Below are positions 9,427 through 53,321 of a stretch of 64,000 nucleotides of DNA, piece by piece. A model generated the notes under the pieces. The model saw nothing but the letters and a program-made list of their open reading frames with translations. It was not told the DNA's origin and did no database searches. Position numbers and translations under genes: made by a program. Position 1 is the first letter of the stretch. Every line of letters starts with the position of its first letter. The DNA lies in contig JACPGS010000027.1 of assembly GCA_016189025.1 (NCBI GenBank), forward strand, positions 22,506-86,505, given 5' to 3'. The DNA comes from Candidatus Magasanikiibacteriota bacterium (lineage in GTDB: Bacteria > Patescibacteriota > Patescibacteriia > Magasanikbacterales > GWA2-37-8).

Positions 9427-10623
9427 ATGAATCAAACCATTGGCGTATTTTTTGGCAGCCGCAGCCCGGAGCATGACGTATCCATTGTTACCGGGGAGTT
9501 TGTCATGCGGCGCTTGCGCGATCTTAACTACCGGGTAGTGCCGGTATATATCGGCAAAGACGGGCAGTGGTATATTCAGGAACAATTGGGAAAGCTTAAA
9601 TTTTTTACCAACGATGCATCGTTTTCTGAACAACTGGCTGGGAGCGGCTGGAATCGGTTTTATCTTGATTTAGAGGCCTCCCGCGGCAAGTTGGCGTTCT
9701 GTACTAAAGGATGGCGAAAGCGCACGGTAGAAATTGATTTAGTTTTTCCTACGGTCCATGGCTCCGGCGGCGAAGACGGCACCCTGCAGGGTTTATGCGA
9801 AATGTTTCAGGCGCCTTACGTGGGGTGCGAGGTGGCCGCTTCGGCCGTGGCGATGGATAAGGTATTAACTAAGTTGATTCTTCAGGGCGCCGGGATTCCC
9901 ACCGCTAAGTTTATTTTCTTCACTAAGGCTGAATTTAACCGCGAGCGGGCGGCGATTCTGGCGCGGTTGCGCCGCGAGCTTAACTATCCGGTGATAGTAA
10001 AACCGGCGCGCTTGGGTTCATCGATCGGCGTAGCCAAAATAGCCGATCCAGATACTGATGCTTTGGCTACCAGTATTGAAGTGGCTCTTCAATATGACCA
10101 TAAAGTATTGATAGAACAGGCGATTGAACCAGTCGCTGATCTGACGGTTTGCGTGTTAGGCACGGAACCAGTGAGATTGTCTTTAATTCAGCAGTCGGTT
10201 TTTTCGCGCGCAGTATTGGATTTTACGGCGAAGTATTTGGAAGAAGGCGGTACCCAGTTAGGGGGGAAAGATACCTCGGTAGTAATTCCGGCGCCGCTCT
10301 CGCCAGAAGTAACCGAGGCGATTAGCGAAGTGGCACGTAAAATTTTTCGTCTGTTAGGGTGCAGCGGCATTGCCCGGGTTGACTTTTTGTATAACCAGAA
10401 AACCGGGGAATGGTTTGCCAACGAAGTAAATACTCTCCCGGGCACGCTGTATCATCATTTGTGGGAGCGCTCTGGGGTGCCGTTTGACGAAGTTTTGCAG
10501 ACCTTGATAAAATTAGCCGCCGAGCGGGCGCTGGAGCGCCGGCGTTTGGTCTATAGCTTTCCTTCGCAGTTGCTGACGGCCGCCGGCAGTTTAAAGCTGG
10601 CCGGCAATAAACTCGGGCTTTAG
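9427..10623 (+). CDS. ddl: D-alanine--D-alanine ligase
   Basis: Shows VFFGSRSPEHDVSI, HGSGGEDGTLQG and ATP-grasp C-terminus motifs. ATG at 9427 was chosen over the track's TTG at 9421. Confidence 0.85.
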   Translation: MNQTIGVFFGSRSPEHDVSIVTGEFVMRRLRDLNYRVVPVYIGKDGQWYIQEQLGKLKFFTNDASFSEQLAGSGWNRFYLDLEASRGKLAFCTKGWRKRTVEIDLVFPTVHGSGGEDGTLQGLCEMFQAPYVGCEVAASAVAMDKVLTKLILQGAGIPTAKFIFFTKAEFNRERAAILARLRRELNYPVIVKPARLGSSIGVAKIADPDTDALATSIEVALQYDHKVLIEQAIEPVADLTVCVLGTEPVRLSLIQQSVFSRAVLDFTAKYLEEGGTQLGGKDTSVVIPAPLSPEVTEAISEVARKIFRLLGCSGIARVDFLYNQKTGEWFANEVNTLPGTLYHHLWERSGVPFDEVLQTLIKLAAERALERRRLVYSFPSQLLTAAGSLKLAGNKLGL

Positions 10624-10783
10624 AGCCTGTCTAACAAGTCCATTTCTGCTGCCAGTCGCCAATTCCGGCTGCAAAAAACTCATCGCTCGTCGGCGTATAT
10701 TCCATATACACCTCCTCACGCTTCGTTTTTTTCGCTCGAAATTGTCGCCTTTCGCTACGAAAGCGACTTATTAGACAGGCTCT
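10622..10783. repeat. Single-copy palindromic element bounded by perfect 13-bp inverted repeats AGAGCCTGTCTAA / TTAGACAGGCTCT
   Basis: Terminal inverted repeats read from the sequence. An internal hairpin GTCGCCTTTCGCTACGAAAGCGAC is present. The element fills the ddl-to-next-gene spacer. Confidence 0.6.
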
Positions 10784-14448: not shown

Positions 14449-14627
14449 AGACTGTAGAAGAATGCCGACCATAATCGTTATCCGTCTGGTCGCTGTCGCT
14501 ATTGTTGGAAATTACCTGGTCGGTCGCGGCAGACACTCTTTGGGTGCTCATAAATAATTGCGCGCCCAAAGACACTCGTCTGCCGCGCCCTGATGCTAAC
14601 TGGTTTTTTCAATTCTTCTCCAGTCTT
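14449..14627 (+). mobile_element. MITE-like family 1, copy B
   Basis: TIRs AGACTGTAGAAGAAT / ATTCTTCTCCAGTCT with one mismatch and a conserved core. The apical hairpin is replaced by ATAAATAATT. The copy lies between xerD and the ftsQ-like gene. Confidence 0.7.
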
Positions 14628-26023: not shown

Positions 26024-29002
26024 TTAGACGCGGAATTCGCAGATATCCCGGAAGGGACAGCGCTCGCAAACAAATTTGCCGGGGGTAGCGGTAAAATCTT
26101 TGGCCTGAATCCGGTTAATCGTGTTAATCAGTTTGTCCTGAAGTTCCTGCAATTCAACCGCGTCGCCGAGAAATGAAGTGCGCTGGTTATCATCTAGATA
26201 ATAGAAAGTCAGTTTGCCCGGCCGGCCTAACGGCTGGTATTCCGGCAGCTGCGCTACCGCCAGCTGGTAGATTAGCAGCTGTTCTTTGTCAGCGGCGTCC
26301 AGGGTTGCTTTAGGCGTTCCGGTTTTGTAATCAATAATTTCCAGGGTGCCGTCGGGTTGGCGATCAATCCGGTCAATTCTTCCCTGGATCAGATACTCCC
26401 CTACTCTGATTTTAAACCAGCTTTCCAGGTAAGCCGGCACGATCCAGTGGCCAGCGGAGGCCACGTAAAAAATTTTTAAGATGGCTTTCCCCTTTTTATA
26501 ATATTCCTCCCGCTGGTACGGGCTGTCATACCAGTCAGGAATCCAGCTCTGCTCGTATAATGCCAATAATTCTTCTAAAGAGGGTGCCTTAGGGCCGGGA
26601 GTGGTTTCCGGTTGACTTGCCGGTAGGAGGTGAGCCGGATAATTAAACAGCGAAGTTTGCTGGACATTATTAAGGGCCTGGATTTTTTTATAGAAAGCAA
26701 ACAGGGTATTATGAATAGTCTGGCCGAAACTAAAGCTGGCATTACCCTTCACCGGCAGGTTTAGAATATGAGCCAGTTTGTATTGATAAGGACAAGTGGC
26801 GTAAGAGCGCAACTGGGAAAAAGAAAAGACCCGGGGCAGAGTAAAAATAAATTCGCCCGGCGGGGTGACGGCGACGGTGGTTGGGGGCGGGGGCGGTAGC
26901 GATGATTTTTGAATAACTGGCGGAGTAACTCCGGAAGAATATCCTAATTCAGCCAGGAATCGGCTGATTTTTTTGGCGCGGATTCCTCCGTAATTACCGG
27001 CGCTGGTAAAATACACCCGCTCCTTGGCGCGCGTGATTGCCACATAGAATAAACGCCGTTCTTCTTCCTGGTGGCTGTCCCCCTCCGGCAGCTGTTCTTT
27101 AATTAAAGCAAGCGGGATCTCAATTCCGTCTCCGCGGTAACGAGTAGGAAAGCGATCTTCCACCAGATTGACAATGAAGACGTATTTGAATTCCAGACCT
27201 TTGGCCGCGTGGACCGTTAAGATATTCACCGAATCAGGCGTTTCGGCCGGCTGCCACCCCCCACCCCGATCTCCGGCGGTTAACACCAGATTAAAAGACT
27301 CCAGCCAGTCAGCTACTCGGGCGCCGGGGTTCAAAGTCTCCCACTCCGCCAGCTCATCAAAGAATTCTTTCAGATAATAAATTTGACGGATCGCTTCTCG
27401 GTTCCCCTCTCCTTCCTCGTGAGTTAAATAACTCAAATAGCCGATGGTGGCTAAAAAATTATAGAGAATCACCGAAGGTTTTTCTTGCCGTTGTCTGCTA
27501 GCTCCGGCCTGAATAATTGCCATCAGCCGGGCACCGGTATTTTGTCCGGCGGGAGAGAGATTTAATTCCGGCGCCCGCTGCAGCGCTTCGTAGTAAGAAA
27601 TTGATTTTTTTTTGGCGAACAGGGTTAATTTTTGCAAATCGGGTTCCGGAAATGCCAGGAACGGCAGGCACAGCAGGCGGAATACCGCCGGCGATTCGTG
27701 GTAGTTATCCAGCAGTCGGAAATAATTAAGGGCGTCAATCATCACCGGCTGGCGATAGAGGCCGCCCGCCGCCAGATATTCATAAGGGATGCGCCGGGCC
27801 TCCAGGGCATTGATAAAGGGATCGGCGTGATTATTAGCACGCACGAGAATGGCAAAATCATCCCACGCCGCTTCCGGGTCAGCTTCCTTGAGTTTTATTA
27901 TTTCCTTAATTACCAGTTCAGTTTCGGCGGCGAGCGTGGGGGCGGCCAGGTGCGTCAGGCAAACCCCCCGAGTGGCCGGGTGTCGGGCAGCTGATTTTAG
28001 CTGTTTAGTAATGCCTAATTTTATTTCCAGCCGATCCGGGTTATTATTTTGGATTAAGGTATAGGCCGCGTCCAGAATAGGCTGGCAAGAGCGATAATTT
28101 TCGTTTAAGACGATTTCTTTAGCCGACGGATAATCGTTTTTGAAGTGCAGAATATTGGAAACGCTGGCCCCTCGGAAAGCGTAAATGGATTGGTCGTCGT
28201 CGCCGACCACGGTAAGCTGGGGAGCGGGGGCGGGTGCGGCCCCAGTCAGTAATTGTACCAGGCGATACTGGGCCCAGTTGACATCCTGGAATTCATCTAC
28301 CAGGATATATTTGAATTGTTGCTGCCAGGTTTGCAAAATCGCCGGCCGTTCGGTAAATAATTTTACGGCGTAATAAATTAAATCGCCAAAATCCAGCCGG
28401 GCATTGTCTAGCAGCAGTTGATTGTAGATATGGTAGGCGTTGGCAATCTCGGTGAGGCGATTCCTCTCTTCCACGTTCATATCGCCCTGATTTTTGGTGG
28501 AGGCTTCGGCGTATTCCAGATATTCCCGGGGTGAAATTAATTCGTCTTTGCATTTAGAAAAATGTTTCAGCAGTTCCCGCAAATGCCGCGTGGGGTGACC
28601 CAGCGGGCGGTAGTAATCCAGCTTTAATTTGGTTAAATTTTTATGCAGTAGAATCCAGGCCGCGGTTTCGGTAAGCAATTGAAATTGGTTGCTTAAACCG
28701 ATATCCAGGGCATGGCGCTCCAGAATATTCTGGCCGAAAGCATGGAAAGTGGAGATGGTGAGCGCCGTATAGCCGGTATTAATCAGGCGGTCTACCCGTT
28801 CCTGCATTTCCGCGGCGGCTTTGTCGGTAAAGGTCAGGGCCAGAATTTCCTCCGGTTGGGCAAGTTTCCGTTCCAGCAGGTAGCAGATTTTACTGGTAAT
28901 TACGGTAGTTTTACCGGTGCCGGCCCCGGCGACAATCAGCAAGGGACCAGCCGTATATTCCACCGCCTCCCGTTGCGCTGGATTGAGATTGGTAAAAGAC
29001 AT
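26024..29002 (-). CDS. UvrD/PcrA-family helicase fused to a C-terminal Cas4/RecB-like Fe-S PD-(D/E)XK nuclease (AddA-like)
   Basis: N-terminal GAGTGKT Walker A and UvrD motifs. The C-terminus shows IQGRIDRIDRQPDGTLEIIDYKTG and CERCPFRDIC. The likely ATG is at 29002; the track uses GTG at 29011. Confidence 0.8.
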   Translation of the reverse strand: MSFTNLNPAQREAVEYTAGPLLIVAGAGTGKTTVITSKICYLLERKLAQPEEILALTFTDKAAAEMQERVDRLINTGYTALTISTFHAFGQNILERHALDIGLSNQFQLLTETAAWILLHKNLTKLKLDYYRPLGHPTRHLRELLKHFSKCKDELISPREYLEYAEASTKNQGDMNVEERNRLTEIANAYHIYNQLLLDNARLDFGDLIYYAVKLFTERPAILQTWQQQFKYILVDEFQDVNWAQYRLVQLLTGAAPAPAPQLTVVGDDDQSIYAFRGASVSNILHFKNDYPSAKEIVLNENYRSCQPILDAAYTLIQNNNPDRLEIKLGITKQLKSAARHPATRGVCLTHLAAPTLAAETELVIKEIIKLKEADPEAAWDDFAILVRANNHADPFINALEARRIPYEYLAAGGLYRQPVMIDALNYFRLLDNYHESPAVFRLLCLPFLAFPEPDLQKLTLFAKKKSISYYEALQRAPELNLSPAGQNTGARLMAIIQAGASRQRQEKPSVILYNFLATIGYLSYLTHEEGEGNREAIRQIYYLKEFFDELAEWETLNPGARVADWLESFNLVLTAGDRGGGWQPAETPDSVNILTVHAAKGLEFKYVFIVNLVEDRFPTRYRGDGIEIPLALIKEQLPEGDSHQEEERRLFYVAITRAKERVYFTSAGNYGGIRAKKISRFLAELGYSSGVTPPVIQKSSLPPPPPTTVAVTPPGEFIFTLPRVFSFSQLRSYATCPYQYKLAHILNLPVKGNASFSFGQTIHNTLFAFYKKIQALNNVQQTSLFNYPAHLLPASQPETTPGPKAPSLEELLALYEQSWIPDWYDSPYQREEYYKKGKAILKIFYVASAGHWIVPAYLESWFKIRVGEYLIQGRIDRIDRQPDGTLEIIDYKTGTPKATLDAADKEQLLIYQLAVAQLPEYQPLGRPGKLTFYYLDDNQRTSFLGDAVELQELQDKLINTINRIQAKDFTATPGKFVCERCPFRDICEFRV

Positions 29003-29003
29003 A

Positions 29004-29025
29004 AAAAGCACCTAGAGTGGTGCTG
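29004..29025 (-). terminator. Terminator of the atp operon (AGCACC-tagagt-GGTGCT plus a T run on the minus strand)
   Basis: Hairpin immediately 3' of atpC on the minus strand. Confidence 0.55.
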
Positions 29026-30902: not shown

Positions 30903-30943
30903 GTGTCATTGCGAGGAGCCTCGCGGCGACGAAGCAATGACAC
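30903..30943. repeat. Nested palindrome GTGTCATTGCGAGGAGCCTCGCGGCGACGAAGCAATGACAC, a small palindromic repeat of the REP kind (repetitive extragenic palindrome), in the atpG-atpD spacer
   Basis: 10-bp outer stem GTGTCATTGC/GCAATGACAC with an inner CGAGG/CCTCG stem. It is related to the GTCATTCCGAGCG copies at 31630, 40091 and 46447. Confidence 0.6.
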
Positions 30944-30945
30944 CG

Positions 30946-32079
30946 TTATTCAAGTGCCGCCGCCCCTCCCACAATCTCCGCTATCTCCCGCGTAATCGCT
31001 CCTTGCCGCGCTTTATTAAACGAATAATTCAGCTCTTTAATTATATCTTCGGCCGCGTCGCTGGCGTTCCTCATTGCCATCATGCGGGCGCTGTGTTCGG
31101 AGGCGTCGGATTCTAGAATTGTTTGGTAGACTTGGGTTTCTACCAGGCGAGGCAGTAGCACATTCAAAACTTCTTTAGCGCCGGGTTCAAAGAGGAAGAT
31201 GTTTTGGTCGAGCGAGACCTCTCCCTGCCCTCTTCCTTCACTTTGTTCAGGACAGGCTCTTTGCGATGGAGAGGGTTCGATTTCTTCCGCTCCTTCTTGC
31301 CACCCAGGGGTCGGTTCTTCCGTTTCCCACAGTTCCTGCATTAAATGATGCCAGCCGCCGGCCAGATCCATTTCGGTAAGGGGCAAAATTTGTTTAACGC
31401 GCGGGATTTGTTGAACTGCCGAAACAAAGTCGGTGTAGGCGACGACTATTTTATCGTAAACGCCGTTGGTGTAATCAAGAATCGCCTGCTGGACTAAAGG
31501 CATTATTTCTTCAATTTTAGTTGTTAAGTCTTCTTTAGGATATTCGGCCGCGATGCGGTGGCCAAAGCGCTGGTATAATTTTTTGCCTTTTTTGCCGGTG
31601 AGGATTATTTGGACTTCGACGCTCCGTTTGTCATTCCGAGCGGAGTCCGCCGCAGTGGACGGAGTCGAGGAATCGCTTGAACTTTGTGACTCAACGGTCA
31701 AGGGATTCCTCCGCTCGCTGTGACGCTCGGTCGGAATGACAGTGGTGGTGACACCCTCTGCTTCAACAATATACTTATGCGCCTCTTGCAAAAGCCGGCT
31801 GTTAAACCCGCCCGCCAGACCGCGGTTGCTGGTGATATAGATCATGCCGATGGTTTTTACCGGCCGCTGATGCAACAGCGGATGCAGGCGGATATCCGTG
31901 CGCTTGGCAATATCCTGCAGCATCTCCCACGCCAAATTGGCGTAGCTCCTGGTACCCAAAACATTCCCCACCGCCCGGCGCATTTTCACGGCAGAAATCA
32001 TCTCCATCGCTTTTGTTATTTTTTTGGTGTTGCCAATGGATTTGATGCGGCGTTTGATTGTTTTGGTTGAGAGGGCCAT
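30946..32079 (-). CDS. atpG: ATP synthase F1 gamma subunit, unusually long (377 aa) because of in-frame insertions
   Basis: Conserved N-terminal (MALSTKTIKRRIKSI) and C-terminal (ITREIAEIVGGAAALE) gamma helices. Internal inserts PTERHSERRNPLTVESQSSSDSSTPSTAADSARND and EEPTPGWQEGAEEIEPSPSQRACPEQSEGRGQGE are absent from typical ~290-aa gamma subunits. Confidence 0.85.
   Translation of the reverse strand: MALSTKTIKRRIKSIGNTKKITKAMEMISAVKMRRAVGNVLGTRSYANLAWEMLQDIAKRTDIRLHPLLHQRPVKTIGMIYITSNRGLAGGFNSRLLQEAHKYIVEAEGVTTTVIPTERHSERRNPLTVESQSSSDSSTPSTAADSARNDKRSVEVQIILTGKKGKKLYQRFGHRIAAEYPKEDLTTKIEEIMPLVQQAILDYTNGVYDKIVVAYTDFVSAVQQIPRVKQILPLTEMDLAGGWHHLMQELWETEEPTPGWQEGAEEIEPSPSQRACPEQSEGRGQGEVSLDQNIFLFEPGAKEVLNVLLPRLVETQVYQTILESDASEHSARMMAMRNASDAAEDIIKELNYSFNKARQGAITREIAEIVGGAAALE
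31630..31740. repeat. 111-bp nested palindromic element inside the atpG coding sequence (GTCATTCCGAGCG...CGCTCGGTCGGAATGAC)
   Basis: Outer arms at 31630-31642 and 31724-31740, with inner arms GAGGAATCGC / GGGATTCCTC. The length is 37 codons, in frame. Confidence 0.65.
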
Positions 32080-32121: not shown

Positions 32122-32472
32122 TTATGATAAATCTATAATTTTCTTAGCGCTTTTTCGTATCTCCTCCATTTTTTCTGTTACTTTTATGCCTAAAGTTTCC
32201 AATTTTTGCCTCAATCCAGTAAAAACTGAAGAGGGAATCATCTCTTCATTCCTTAATAAAAGTTCGACAAGCTTCTCCGCATTCGCTGCAAAAATATTGA
32301 GTTGTTTCAGTCGTTTAATTAGTACAGCCGCCAATAACTCTCTGGATAAATCTACGGGAGTGGTTCCAATTTCAGTTAAGTAGGCACCAACAGCTTTATT
32401 AAAAGCTTCGATCGACGCTCTAAAAGTAGGAATGTCAAAAACTTCAATTTTTCCTCCTTCAGTCTCGTCCAT
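32122..32472 (-). CDS. Hypothetical protein (116 aa) encoded by an AT-rich insert between atpA and atpG
   Basis: Clean ORF with no recognisable family. Its base composition is visibly AT-rich compared with the flanking atp genes. Confidence 0.45.
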   Translation of the reverse strand: MDETEGGKIEVFDIPTFRASIEAFNKAVGAYLTEIGTTPVDLSRELLAAVLIKRLKQLNIFAANAEKLVELLLRNEEMIPSSVFTGLRQKLETLGIKVTEKMEEIRKSAKKIIDLS

Positions 32473-39381: not shown

Positions 39382-40059
39382 TTAACGATTGATGACAATG
39401 ACGAATTCTCCCCGCTCATCAATTTTTTGTTGACTAATTTCAGTAATCGTCCCCCGATAAATTGTTTCAAATTTTTTGGTCAGCTCCCGGCCGATCATCA
39501 CTTTTGTGCTTGGCGAGAGTACCTGATTGAGCTCGGTTAAGCATTTTTTAATCCGGTGGCCCGATTCGTAGAATACCACGGTATAGGGACGGTTGGCAAT
39601 CTCGGCAAAGAATTTTTGCCGTTTATTTTTATGGGGCGGAAAACCTAAAAAAAGGAACTGATCGGTGGGAAAGCCGGAGATACTCAAAGCGGCAGTAACA
39701 GCGGCGGGACCGGGGATGGGTACGATGTTTAGTATTTCGTTGTTCAATTGTTTTATTGTTAATTGCTGAATAAGTGCGTTGCCGGGATCGCTGATGCCGG
39801 GAGTGCCGGCGTCGGTGACCAGCGCTAAATTTTTGTTTTCGGCCAGGAGTTTTTGAATATCTTTAATTTTTCTGGCATCGCTGTGGTGATGGTAACTGAT
39901 TAGCGGTTTGCTGATTTGGTAATGAGCCAAGAGTGGTTTGGTAACCCGCGTGTCTTCGCACAAAATAACATCAACCTGGCGCAGCGTGTCTAGGGCGCGC
40001 AAAGTGATATCCGCTAAATTGCCAATGGGGGTGGCGACCAAATAAAGAGTGCCGGGCAT
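39382..40059 (-). CDS. rsmI: 16S rRNA 2'-O-methyltransferase RsmI (tetrapyrrole-methylase fold)
   Basis: LYLVATPIGNLADITLRAL canonical N-terminus. The track's TTG start at 40119 adds 20 residues encoded by a palindromic repeat; the ATG at 40059 is preferred. Confidence 0.8.
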   Translation of the reverse strand: MPGTLYLVATPIGNLADITLRALDTLRQVDVILCEDTRVTKPLLAHYQISKPLISYHHHSDARKIKDIQKLLAENKNLALVTDAGTPGISDPGNALIQQLTIKQLNNEILNIVPIPGPAAVTAALSISGFPTDQFLFLGFPPHKNKRQKFFAEIANRPYTVVFYESGHRIKKCLTELNQVLSPSTKVMIGRELTKKFETIYRGTITEISQQKIDERGEFVIVINR

Positions 40060-40090
40060 AAAGCTATAGAAGCCATTAGTAAAAGAATAG

Positions 40091-40118
40091 GGATTCCTCG
40101 GCTTCGCTCGGAATGACA
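40091..40118. repeat. REP-like palindrome GGATTCCTCGGCTTCGCTCGGAATGACA
   Basis: Same family as the 30903, 31630 and 46447 copies. Confidence 0.55.
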
Positions 40119-40131
40119 ATTGAAAATAACC

Positions 40132-41893: not shown

Positions 41894-42092
41894 ACTGTAG
41901 AAGAATAAGACTGGAGAAGAATGCCAGCTATATTGTTGTCCGCCTAGGCGCTGTCGCTCTTGCTCGGCATGCCTGGTCGGTCGCGGCAGACACTCATAGG
42001 GCGCTCCTCCCGACTCAAGTCGGGACTGCGCGCCCAAAGACACTCGTCTGCCGCGCCCTGATTCTGACTGATTTTTTAATTCTTCTCCAGTT
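41894..42092 (+). mobile_element. MITE-like family 1, copy C, with a tandemly duplicated left TIR
   Basis: ACTGTAGAAGAAT followed by AAGACTGGAGAAGAAT at the left end, ATTCTTCTCCAGTT at the right end, and a full core with apical hairpin CCCGACTCAAGTCGGG. Confidence 0.7.
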
Positions 42093-45907: not shown

Positions 45908-46031
45908 TAGGACTTACGCGTTTGGCTGCAGTTCAAGGCGGCAGCGAGCACCGGAGCGAGACGTAGCCAAAGCCTACGGCGAGCGAGGAGCGTAGCGACA
46001 ACGCCGAAATGCACCAAACGCGTAAGTCCTA
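45908..46031. mobile_element. Palindromic element family 2, copy 1, with 18-bp TIRs TAGGACTTACGCGTTTGG / CCAAACGCGTAAGTCCTA
   Basis: About 90% identical to the copy at 53199-53321. Confidence 0.65.
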
Positions 46032-46446: not shown

Positions 46447-46502
46447 GAGATCCCTCGGCTTCGCCTCGGGATGAGAGCGTTGAATAGTTATTCAACGCTC
46501 TC
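46447..46502. repeat. REP-like palindrome GAGATCCCTCGGCTTCGCCTCGGGATGAGA followed by a 14-bp-stem hairpin GAGAGCGTTGAATA-gtt-ATTCAACGCTCTC overlapping the ribE stop
   Basis: Read from the sequence. The T run lies on the + strand side only. Confidence 0.5.
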
Positions 46503-53198: not shown

Positions 53199-53321
53199 TA
53201 GGACTTACGCGTTTGGATGCAGTTCCAGGCGGCAGCGAGCACTGGAGCGAGCCGTAGCCAAGACTACGGCGAGCGAAGGGCGCAGCGACAACGCTGAAAT
53301 GCGCCAAACGCGTAAGTCCTA
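53199..53321. mobile_element. Palindromic element family 2, copy 2
   Basis: TAGGACTTACGCGTTTGG...CCAAACGCGTAAGTCCTA. Confidence 0.65.

Follow-up and report, generated by a model that had tools for sequence, protein, structure and literature searches.

How does an essential rotor protein come to be encoded in part by a palindrome? The question is raised by a 64,000-nucleotide stretch of a Candidatus Magasanikiibacteriota genome (contig JACPGS010000027.1, positions 22,506 to 86,505; the window hereafter), whose atpG gene, encoding the gamma subunit of the F-type ATP synthase, contains an in-frame hairpin-forming segment of 111 bp. This segment is probably a selfish hairpin repeat resembling the Rickettsia palindromic elements (RPEs) and the REPINs, which are related to repetitive extragenic palindromic (REP) sequences; its insertions would survive only in permissive surface loops, leading to apparent hot spots, and its copies would turn over fast. 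An original prediction, made from the letters of the window, had proposed that a palindrome of a repeat family had colonised coding sequence in-frame, and this core reading is supported by the family copies of other genomes. In the following, W stands for the window's own atpG or locus, P numbers for gamma homologues and L numbers for the loci compared, either of relatives or from IMG/VR contigs.

Two inserts in the gamma subunit

The product of the window gene is an exact match of the annotated F0F1 ATP synthase gamma of a Candidatus Magasanikbacteria metagenome-assembled genome (MAG) and matches PF00231. Its alignment with gamma chains of the PDB (E = 6e-58) falls into three blocks, in which query residues 4-114, 156-240 and 289-376 correspond to reference residues ~3-116, 116-200 and 200-288, respectively. 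No part of the reference is missing, and the query stretches unmatched in solved gammas, of ~41 and ~48 aa, are two clean inserts. The homology spans the axle helices at both termini as well as the Rossmann-like domain, and the secondary structure of an AlphaFold2 model follows the gamma topology. The operon is intact, with the order atpB-E-F-H-A-x-G-D-C, and syntenic with that of relatives. The original prediction of a 377-residue product with a second insert is borne out by the open reading frame (ORF) and by the ~48 unmatched residues, respectively. The gene and its first insert, at a position referred to as site 1, are organized as follows:

30946..32079, minus strand: atpG, F-type ATP synthase gamma with two inserts, 377 aa (ORF list and PDB chains)
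31630..31740, minus strand: family-A palindromic element, insert 1, 111 bp, 37 codons, V114-D150
31629..31642, no strand: outer arm on the low-coordinate side, pairing with 31728-31741, 14 nt, 93% complementary
31728..31741, no strand: outer arm on the high-coordinate side, pairing with 31629-31642
31662..31716, no strand: inner hairpin with arms 31662-31686 and 31692-31716, 25 nt, 80% complementary, 5-nt loop

The element lies in codon register, as 32079 minus 31740 gives 339 nucleotides or 113 codons, and its peptide is VIPTERHSERRNPLTVESQSSSDSSTPSTAADSARND. With one more base at either end, the palindrome occupies 31629-31741 and has the termini TGTCATT...AATGACA; the core of the inner hairpin is GAGGAATC / GATTCCTC. 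The element as a whole consists of a pair of half-units in inverted orientation (GTCATTCCGAsCGAG..GAGGAATC), separated by a spacer of ~25 nt, with extra small hairpins nested in each arm. For the coding-strand RNA the fold has -51.6 kcal/mol and a z of -3.9, a stability that 200 dinucleotide shuffles did not reach in a single case. The in-frame segment of 37 codons and its nested inverted repeat, both anticipated from the sequence, are therefore confirmed by the codon register, the arms and the fold. In size and shape the element falls within the RPE type, that is an imperfect palindrome of ~100-150 bp.

A repeat family dispersed across genomes

The DNA of ten orthologous loci was compared, among which nine site-1 inserts were found. 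All nine are nested palindromes of the form (A)CTGTCATT...AATGACA(GT), 67-116 nt long, with z values from -2.4 to -7.2. They share an architecture in which a terminal arm (GTCATTCYGAGCG) and an inner arm (GARGAATC-YCT) are combined with a variable spacer, and the arms sometimes contain nested small hairpins. A full element consists of two half-units of ~25-45 nt in inverted orientation and is bounded by TGTCATT...AATGACA. The sequence (Y)TGTCAT[TC] is common to all 62 termini, with T at -1 in 62/62, then Y at -2 and W at -3; this conserved flank is a mere extension of the palindrome, and no target-site duplication is visible.

In ~180 kb of Magasanikbacteria loci, 31 full elements were counted, 11 of them intergenic and 20 within long ORFs. 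This sample is biased by the choice of loci through atpG, and without the atpG copies the ratio becomes 12 in ORFs to 11 intergenic. The in-ORF copies are hosted by five gene families, namely atpG, tatD, radical SAM, an AddA/UvrD-like helicase (up to 4 per gene) and rsmI. The loci of relatives thus display a dispersal of the RPE kind, with copies between genes as well as in-frame in unrelated genes. The idea put forward with the original prediction, that the same repeat might be found in other ORFs, holds for tatD, radical SAM, helicase and rsmI of relatives, while the window has one full copy. In searches less tied to atpG, the family half-unit was found on at least 120 IMG/VR contigs, where 8 of 60 full elements lie in ORFs, and the exact 32-base subfamily signature of W on at least 120 metagenome contigs, where 11 of 87 do. 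The family is very widespread and mostly intergenic in these less biased samples (~13-14% in long ORFs).

The IMG/VR contigs with the half-unit, loci L090-L169 among them, are predicted to be viral, range in G+C from 32% to 64% and sometimes bear four copies within 12 kb. The family might be carried by phages, or these contigs could be misclassified host fragments. In the searchable literature no description was found of the family nor of translated palindromes in bacteria of the Candidate Phyla Radiation (CPR). A search for the encoded peptide in other host proteins gave no word-sharing candidates, and a scan of 1.84 billion representatives returned one low-complexity match only.

All in-ORF copies are free of stops in the host frame. 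Their length from GTC to GAC is a multiple of three in 15 of 21 cases versus 3 of 10 for the copies between genes (Fisher p = 0.05), a contrast that is borderline and partly circular since in-ORF copies are defined by an open spanning frame. In atpG, the gene stays open because the VIP...RND phase contains no stops and the copy is a multiple of three long. No split genes were found around intergenic copies in the gene tables of relatives, where the neighbours are intact. Frame, length preservation, comparative data and the intact atp operon make it most likely that the 37-residue segment is translated.

Recurrent occupation of the same loops

The two gamma loops vary strongly in length, as a set of 120 homologues shows. 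At site 1 the median length of the region is 16 aa (57 in W), with at least 30 aa in 21 of the homologues, and the site-2 region, where the second insert lies, has a median of 28 aa and a range of 15-83 (63 in W). The long site-1 regions read VI[LPSM]...[RQ][ND]D in 13 of the 21 cases, for instance VILSETKNPSHQSNVKGSFAPTQDD, VIPTESRDERRNPL... and VILNEAQRSEESLSQSQNGQRSFANAQDD. In a neighbour-joining tree of the gamma core, insert-bearing gammas are scattered among insert-free ones. Near-identical pairs differ as well. P0058 and P0068 are ~97% identical outside the inserts, yet the former has palindromes at both sites and the latter is empty at both. P0008 and P0012 are ~95% identical outside the inserts, and site 1 is filled by family A in P0008 and by two CCCCTCC...GGAGGGG hairpins in P0012, which also has an additional insert at site 2.

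The closest kin of the atpG copies are copies in other genes and not other atpG copies. For instance, the 5' arm of W is identical to that of the L081 tatD copy at 38 of 41 positions, versus 36 of 44 for the L081 atpG copy. In L081 and L085, the atpG copy has an arm or loop variant common to other copies of the same genome. Identity between W and L081 amounts to 82-93% in the element arms, whereas it is 55% for the gamma proteins and 70-74% for the DNA of atpG where this is best conserved (third codon positions, 49%). Arms that are more alike than their host genes indicate that the copies are young relative to host divergence and that the family is constrained.

A similar picture emerges from other genes. 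In tatD, L081 and L085 are filled at an identical position by different subfamilies, and W and L083 are empty there. The AddA/UvrD-like helicase has up to 4 in-frame palindromes at four recurrent positions (L001 17631-21020, L084 9729-13238, L083 18079-21002), one of which holds, depending on the genome, family A or a G+C-rich hairpin family; the window orthologue (26024-29011) has none. Elements can also be nested, as the L001 helicase copy corresponds to the L083 copy with an additional 36-nt hairpin CCTGCCTGC...GCAGGAGGCAGG.

The different subfamilies and families, the patchy tree and the filled and empty near-identical gammas speak for recurrent insertion and replacement. The same loops are recurrently colonised with fast turnover and do not represent an ancestral domain. 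The original prediction had named a homologous segment at the same gamma position in other lineages as the finding that would point to such a domain. A segment is indeed present there in relatives, but its patchy distribution and the different families involved do not fit the ancestral pattern. A single ancient, vertically inherited insertion was rejected on the same grounds, namely the patchy tree, the differences within 95-97%-identical pairs and the location of the nearest elements in other genes.

Tolerance by the gamma structure

In the AlphaFold2 model, site 1 is flanked by helix 95-109 and strand 155-161 of the Rossmann domain, while site 2 follows strand 224-232 and precedes the C-terminal axle helix (301-376). 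The predicted local distance difference test score (pLDDT) is below 50 for residues 112-150 and 239-296 and reaches 81-90 in the adjoining Rossmann-fold core. Both inserts are strongly hydrophilic, with a mean hydropathy of about -1.2, and both are predicted to be disordered.

From the block offsets against solved gammas, site 1 corresponds to ~105-112 and site 2 to ~198-202 in Bacillus-type numbering. The standard construct for single-molecule rotation of TF1 bears gamma S107C and I210C, where probes are fixed to the protruding part of gamma, so that the natural insertion points adjoin positions that tolerate bulky attachments. The disorder prediction and the proximity of these probe sites support the original proposal of an insertion into a tolerant surface loop of gamma. 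In parallel, gammas of phototrophs have a conserved insertion of 30 or 39 aa in the Rossmann fold (PMC8390522). The C-terminal block of chloroplast gamma starts at 235 versus 200 in bacteria, which places the phototroph insertion in the site-2 stretch.

A probably older insert at the second site

The second insert, regarded as low-complexity in the original prediction, does not prove to be merely that, as it holds a degraded hairpin of a second family:

31216..31359, minus strand: insert 2, residues ~241-288, LAGGWHHLMQELWETEEPTPGWQEGAEEIEPSPSQRACPEQSEGRGQGEVS, without counterpart in solved gammas
31213..31279, minus strand: degraded family-B hairpin in insert 2, arms CGAACCCTCTCC ... GGAGAGGTCTCG, 12 nt, 83%

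The arms encode PSPSQR...GQGEV, and a second small hairpin lies in the loop between them; the corresponding peptide in insert 2 is EPSPSQRACPEQSEGRGQGEVSLD. The repeat family concerned is CCCTCTCC...GGAGAGG, distinct from family A. Homologous PSPSQRRGQGEVSL and GQGE[VG]SL peptides are found at the same boundary in P0004, P0005, P0006 and P0016, and relatives have intact CCCTCTCC-N4-GGAGAGGG hairpins, among other places at atpG site 2 in L084. It can be said with moderate confidence that insert 2 is an older, decayed insert from this second, G+C-rich hairpin family.

Proposed course of events and its weak points

In the proposed mechanism, the 111-bp segment would belong, as a single copy, to a dispersed family of hairpin-forming repeats, inserted in-frame in the atpG loop that leads from helix 95-109 to strand 155-161. 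The element would be translated into a hydrophilic, disordered loop of 37 residues on a protruding part of the rotor, where it would make no contact with alpha3beta3 and be tolerated. The loop just before the C-terminal axle helix would have received the older insert from the other family, and copies would be turned over by loss, re-insertion or replacement. We infer that the inserts are near-neutral and that the hot spots come mainly from survival in permissive loops.

Nevertheless, several points weigh against this scenario. The window contains a single full copy besides one to three partial ones, so that the family may or may not be active in this genome. No target-site duplication was found among the 62 termini nor in the filled and empty pair. 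In that pair the codons adjoining the insert differ too and the empty site already has AATGAC; lacking a clean excision footprint, the pair does not reveal the direction of gain or loss nor the mechanism. No candidate transposase (RAYT/Y1) was detected in the 10 Pfam-scanned ORFs of the window or in the Pfam-annotated locus tables of relatives, which together cover a small fraction of any genome. The fold of insert 2 is not significant against shuffles (z = -0.14 and -1.2), which leaves a significant RNA structure there unsupported. The AlphaFold2 model, built from an alignment of 24 sequences, has a mean pLDDT of 64 and is of modest quality. Finally, the frame-length contrast is borderline, as said above, and it is from such data that we infer the presence of the segment in the mature gamma.

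A stronger version of the scenario, tentative at best, is that the TGTCATT...AATGACA hairpins are currently active, horizontally spreading and very small mobile elements with site selectivity. This reading draws on the conservation of arms above that of essential genes, the viral contigs, the nesting and the re-occupied sites in atpG, tatD, radical-SAM and helicase genes. The re-occupied codon positions could come from homing of elements into elements or from gene conversion and not from mere survival in permissive loops. If true, such elements would constitute a systematic generator of loop-length variation in streamlined CPR proteomes.

Alternative explanations

The rival that survives best, although unlikely, is that the hairpin is kept for a role in cis at the nucleic-acid level, for example as an mRNA hairpin within the atp operon tuning the translation of gamma or of the downstream beta and epsilon, or the stability of the transcript, the peptide being a by-product. 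Such a role is not exclusive of the selfish repeat. A very stable fold is preserved in all site-1 inserts (z down to -7.2) and the stems vary in a compensatory manner (GAATC-CCTT/AAGG, -TCTG/CAGA, -TAGTT/AACTA), but compensatory stems are expected anyway if the copies are independent members of a family. Family copies also lie in atp spacers, at 30903-30943 in the window and in atpD-atpC, atpE-atpF and atpF-atpH of relatives, and functions at the RNA level are favoured in the REP literature (PMC3733652). However, near-identical gammas do without the element, an unrelated hairpin family can fill the same loop, and the same elements are found in unrelated genes. Moreover, no terminator-like T-tail was seen after the hairpin and no Rfam family matches the element.

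It is less probable still that the inserts are lineage-specific regulatory loops of gamma, comparable to the beta-hairpin of phototrophs or the gamma loop of mycobacteria, that happen to be built from repeats. Conservation at the protein level is absent, the sequences track the DNA repeat subfamilies, and the same peptides are found in tatD, helicase and radical SAM. Presence and absence between ~97%-identical gammas and the predicted disorder of the region also argue against regulation. What speaks for it is that site 2 is the region of the phototroph regulatory insertion and that both sites are enlarged in many Magasanikbacteria gammas.

Palindromic "byp" inserts in the mitochondria of Magnusiomyces are skipped by translational bypassing. 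By analogy, the element could be missing from the mature protein through bypassing or through removal from the mRNA, since the hairpin in the coding region is very stable and translation itself is no more than likely. This is very improbable in view of the open frame, the length in multiples of three here and in most in-ORF copies as compared with intergenic ones, and the lack of stops in all in-ORF copies. In addition, neither pairing of take-off and landing codons nor intron-like features nor an Rfam intron or ribozyme match were found at the element. As to an assembly or sequencing artefact in the form of a chimeric inverted repeat, some library or assembly errors do create palindromes, but the chance is negligible given that the locus DNA is identical in three independent run-level Logan assemblies (SRR12113385, SRR12113422, SRR12113390), which excludes an assembly artefact, as well as in the NCBI MAG, and that dozens of independent assemblies have comparable inserts.

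Other types of element were considered and rejected. An intrinsic terminator is dismissed for want of a T-tail. An intein, intron or ribozyme is not retained either, as the segment has 37 aa only, is devoid of splicing motifs and has no Rfam match. The variable region of a diversity-generating retroelement was considered because bAvd-like and 23S_rRNA_IVP genes lie near the loci of relatives; it is rejected given that the window has no template copy and that variation takes the form of whole-element replacement.

Relation to known systems

The selfish hairpin repeat favoured here has several known counterparts. RPEs are palindromes of ~100-150 bp dispersed in a small genome and often located in-frame in unrelated housekeeping genes, to which they add a peptide typical of the family; the host proteins are considered to remain functional and the insert positions permissive (Ogata et al. 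2000, Science 290:347, as summarised in PMC10969869 and PMC3733652). The atpG family resembles RPEs by its palindromes at the ~100-bp scale, by its in-frame location in unrelated housekeeping genes and by its family-specific peptide. On the contrary, its host belongs to an unrelated phylum, and the likeness is one of description. Outside Magasanikbacteria the atpG family is mostly intergenic, and it is distributed over many environmental genomes and viral contigs and not over one genus. The re-occupation of loops and the filled and empty turnover do not figure in these summaries on RPEs (PMC10969869, PMC3733652). As its host is a CPR bacterium, the element is treated as an RPE analogue and not as an RPE member.

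REPs and REPINs are short imperfect hairpins, often inverted doublets around a spacer, mostly intergenic and near gene ends (PMC3116915; Di Nocera et al. 2013, PMC3733652). A minority is intragenic and adds 20-80 residues, notably to repair helicases such as UvrD (PMC3733652). In the same way, all full elements of the atpG family are doublets of inverted half-units around a spacer, solo half-units exist too (for example 40089-40117), and the mostly intergenic copies include a minority in genes such as the AddA/UvrD-like helicase. However, the elements are longer and hierarchically nested. Two REP superfamilies are defined by a GTAG or CGTC tag (PMC3116915, PMC3733652), whereas the termini of the atpG family are TGTCATT and neither tag is present in any of the 62. 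The family is thus outside the GTAG/CGTC superfamilies.

ERIC, BOX and the MITEs (miniature transposable elements with inverted repeats) of Anabaena are small and non-autonomous, have inverted ends and are able to give rise to translational fusions (PMC10969869). The atpG family shares the small size, inverted ends and in-frame insertions but differs by the lack of a target-site duplication and by being palindromic over the whole element and not only at its ends. As for the phototroph gamma insertion, it is similar in adding 30-39 residues to the Rossmann fold, in the site-2 stretch directly before the C-terminal helix block (PMC8390522). Nevertheless, it is conserved at the protein level, forms a beta-hairpin and is regulatory (PMC8390522), while the Magasanikbacteria inserts are hypervariable, repeat-derived and predicted to be disordered.

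By analogy, the closest functional relatives would be RPEs and intragenic REPs, so that the phenomenon would be a known one and not a new principle. What is new is the host phylum and the repeat family; a further addition is the evidence that certain loops of an essential rotor subunit are occupied repeatedly and turn over. Translated selfish palindromes would thereby reach beyond Rickettsia to CPR bacteria and even to the rotor of the ATP synthase. The gamma loops that are hit would provide a natural tolerance map next to the probe positions chosen by biophysicists, with the phototroph insertion mapping to the site-2 stretch. Moreover, through these elements proteins become longer, false ORF starts arise, as in rsmI, and hypervariable segments appear, which can mislead alignment, phylogeny and annotation in CPR.

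Other repeat copies in the window

Three further positions of the window have been related to family A:

40089..40117, minus strand: solo half-unit of the same subfamily, GTCATTCCGAGCGAAGCCGAGGAATCCCT, intergenic, upstream of rsmI (nhmmer E = 1.6e-4)
30903..30943, no strand: sister-subfamily palindrome of 41 nt, GTCATTGCGAG...GCAATGAC, between atpG and atpD (weak hidden Markov model match, E = 1.8)
46448..46474, minus strand: degenerate half-unit look-alike, TCATCCCGAGGCGAAGCCGAGGGATCT, intergenic (weak, E = 3.4)

Among the intergenic relatives claimed in the original prediction, the one at 40091 stands, that at 30903 belongs to the sister subfamily with a weak match, and that at 46447 turns out to be a look-alike. 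The copy at 40089-40117 also has exact 13-mer and 11-mer matches to the atpG element, and the tatD, radical SAM and rsmI genes of relatives have in-frame members of the 30903-30943 subfamily. The 13-mer has 3 matches in the window for 1.63 expected, a number reached by 20 of 100 shuffles and thus not above chance, so that the status of a family rests on the other genomes.

For the rsmI gene (39382-40119, minus strand), the longest ORF starts at TTG 40119 (LSFRAKPRNP...), which is the translated solo half-unit, and the true start is ATG 40059 (MPGTLYLV). It offers an example of a spurious N-terminal extension created by repeats of the family.

Neighbouring genes and further elements

A small ORF of 76-285 aa without Pfam match lies between atpA and atpG in the window (32122-32472, minus strand) and in six aligned relatives (L081 9642-9944, L083 9678-9977, L084 2189-2467, L085 9720-9950, L086 2165-3022, L087 3485-3802), and a small ORF occupies this place in the gene tables of further loci. 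The ORFs of relatives are only 13-19% identical to that of the window and homology across genomes is not detectable among them; the slot is conserved and the sequence is not. In relatives, genes for PF05635 "23S_rRNA_IVP" four-helix bundles, with weak bAvd similarity, are located in atp-operon spacers and near rsmI (L082 44-370 and 1682-2074, L086 4095-4466, L088 1670-2059, L085 1662-2069), and the window has none there.

Other hairpin elements populate the window. One of ~70-80 bp is present in four copies (809-887, 14522-14590, 41979-42058, 55982-56058), all intergenic, with the form GG(G/T)CGCGGCAGAC...GTCTGCCGCGCCC, a variable central mini-hairpin and no Rfam match. A segment of 162 bp at 10622-10783, between two genes and without spanning ORF, has 25-nt terminal inverted repeats (88% complementary). 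Finally, an element of ~124 bp with perfect 18-nt terminal inverted repeats TAGGACTTACGCGTTTGG is found in two copies, 45908-46031 (124 bp) and 53199-53321 (123 bp). They have the same orientation and flank a block of ~7.2 kb with ORFs resembling 2-oxoacid:ferredoxin oxidoreductase and acyl-CoA synthetase, which could be a composite or MITE-flanked unit.

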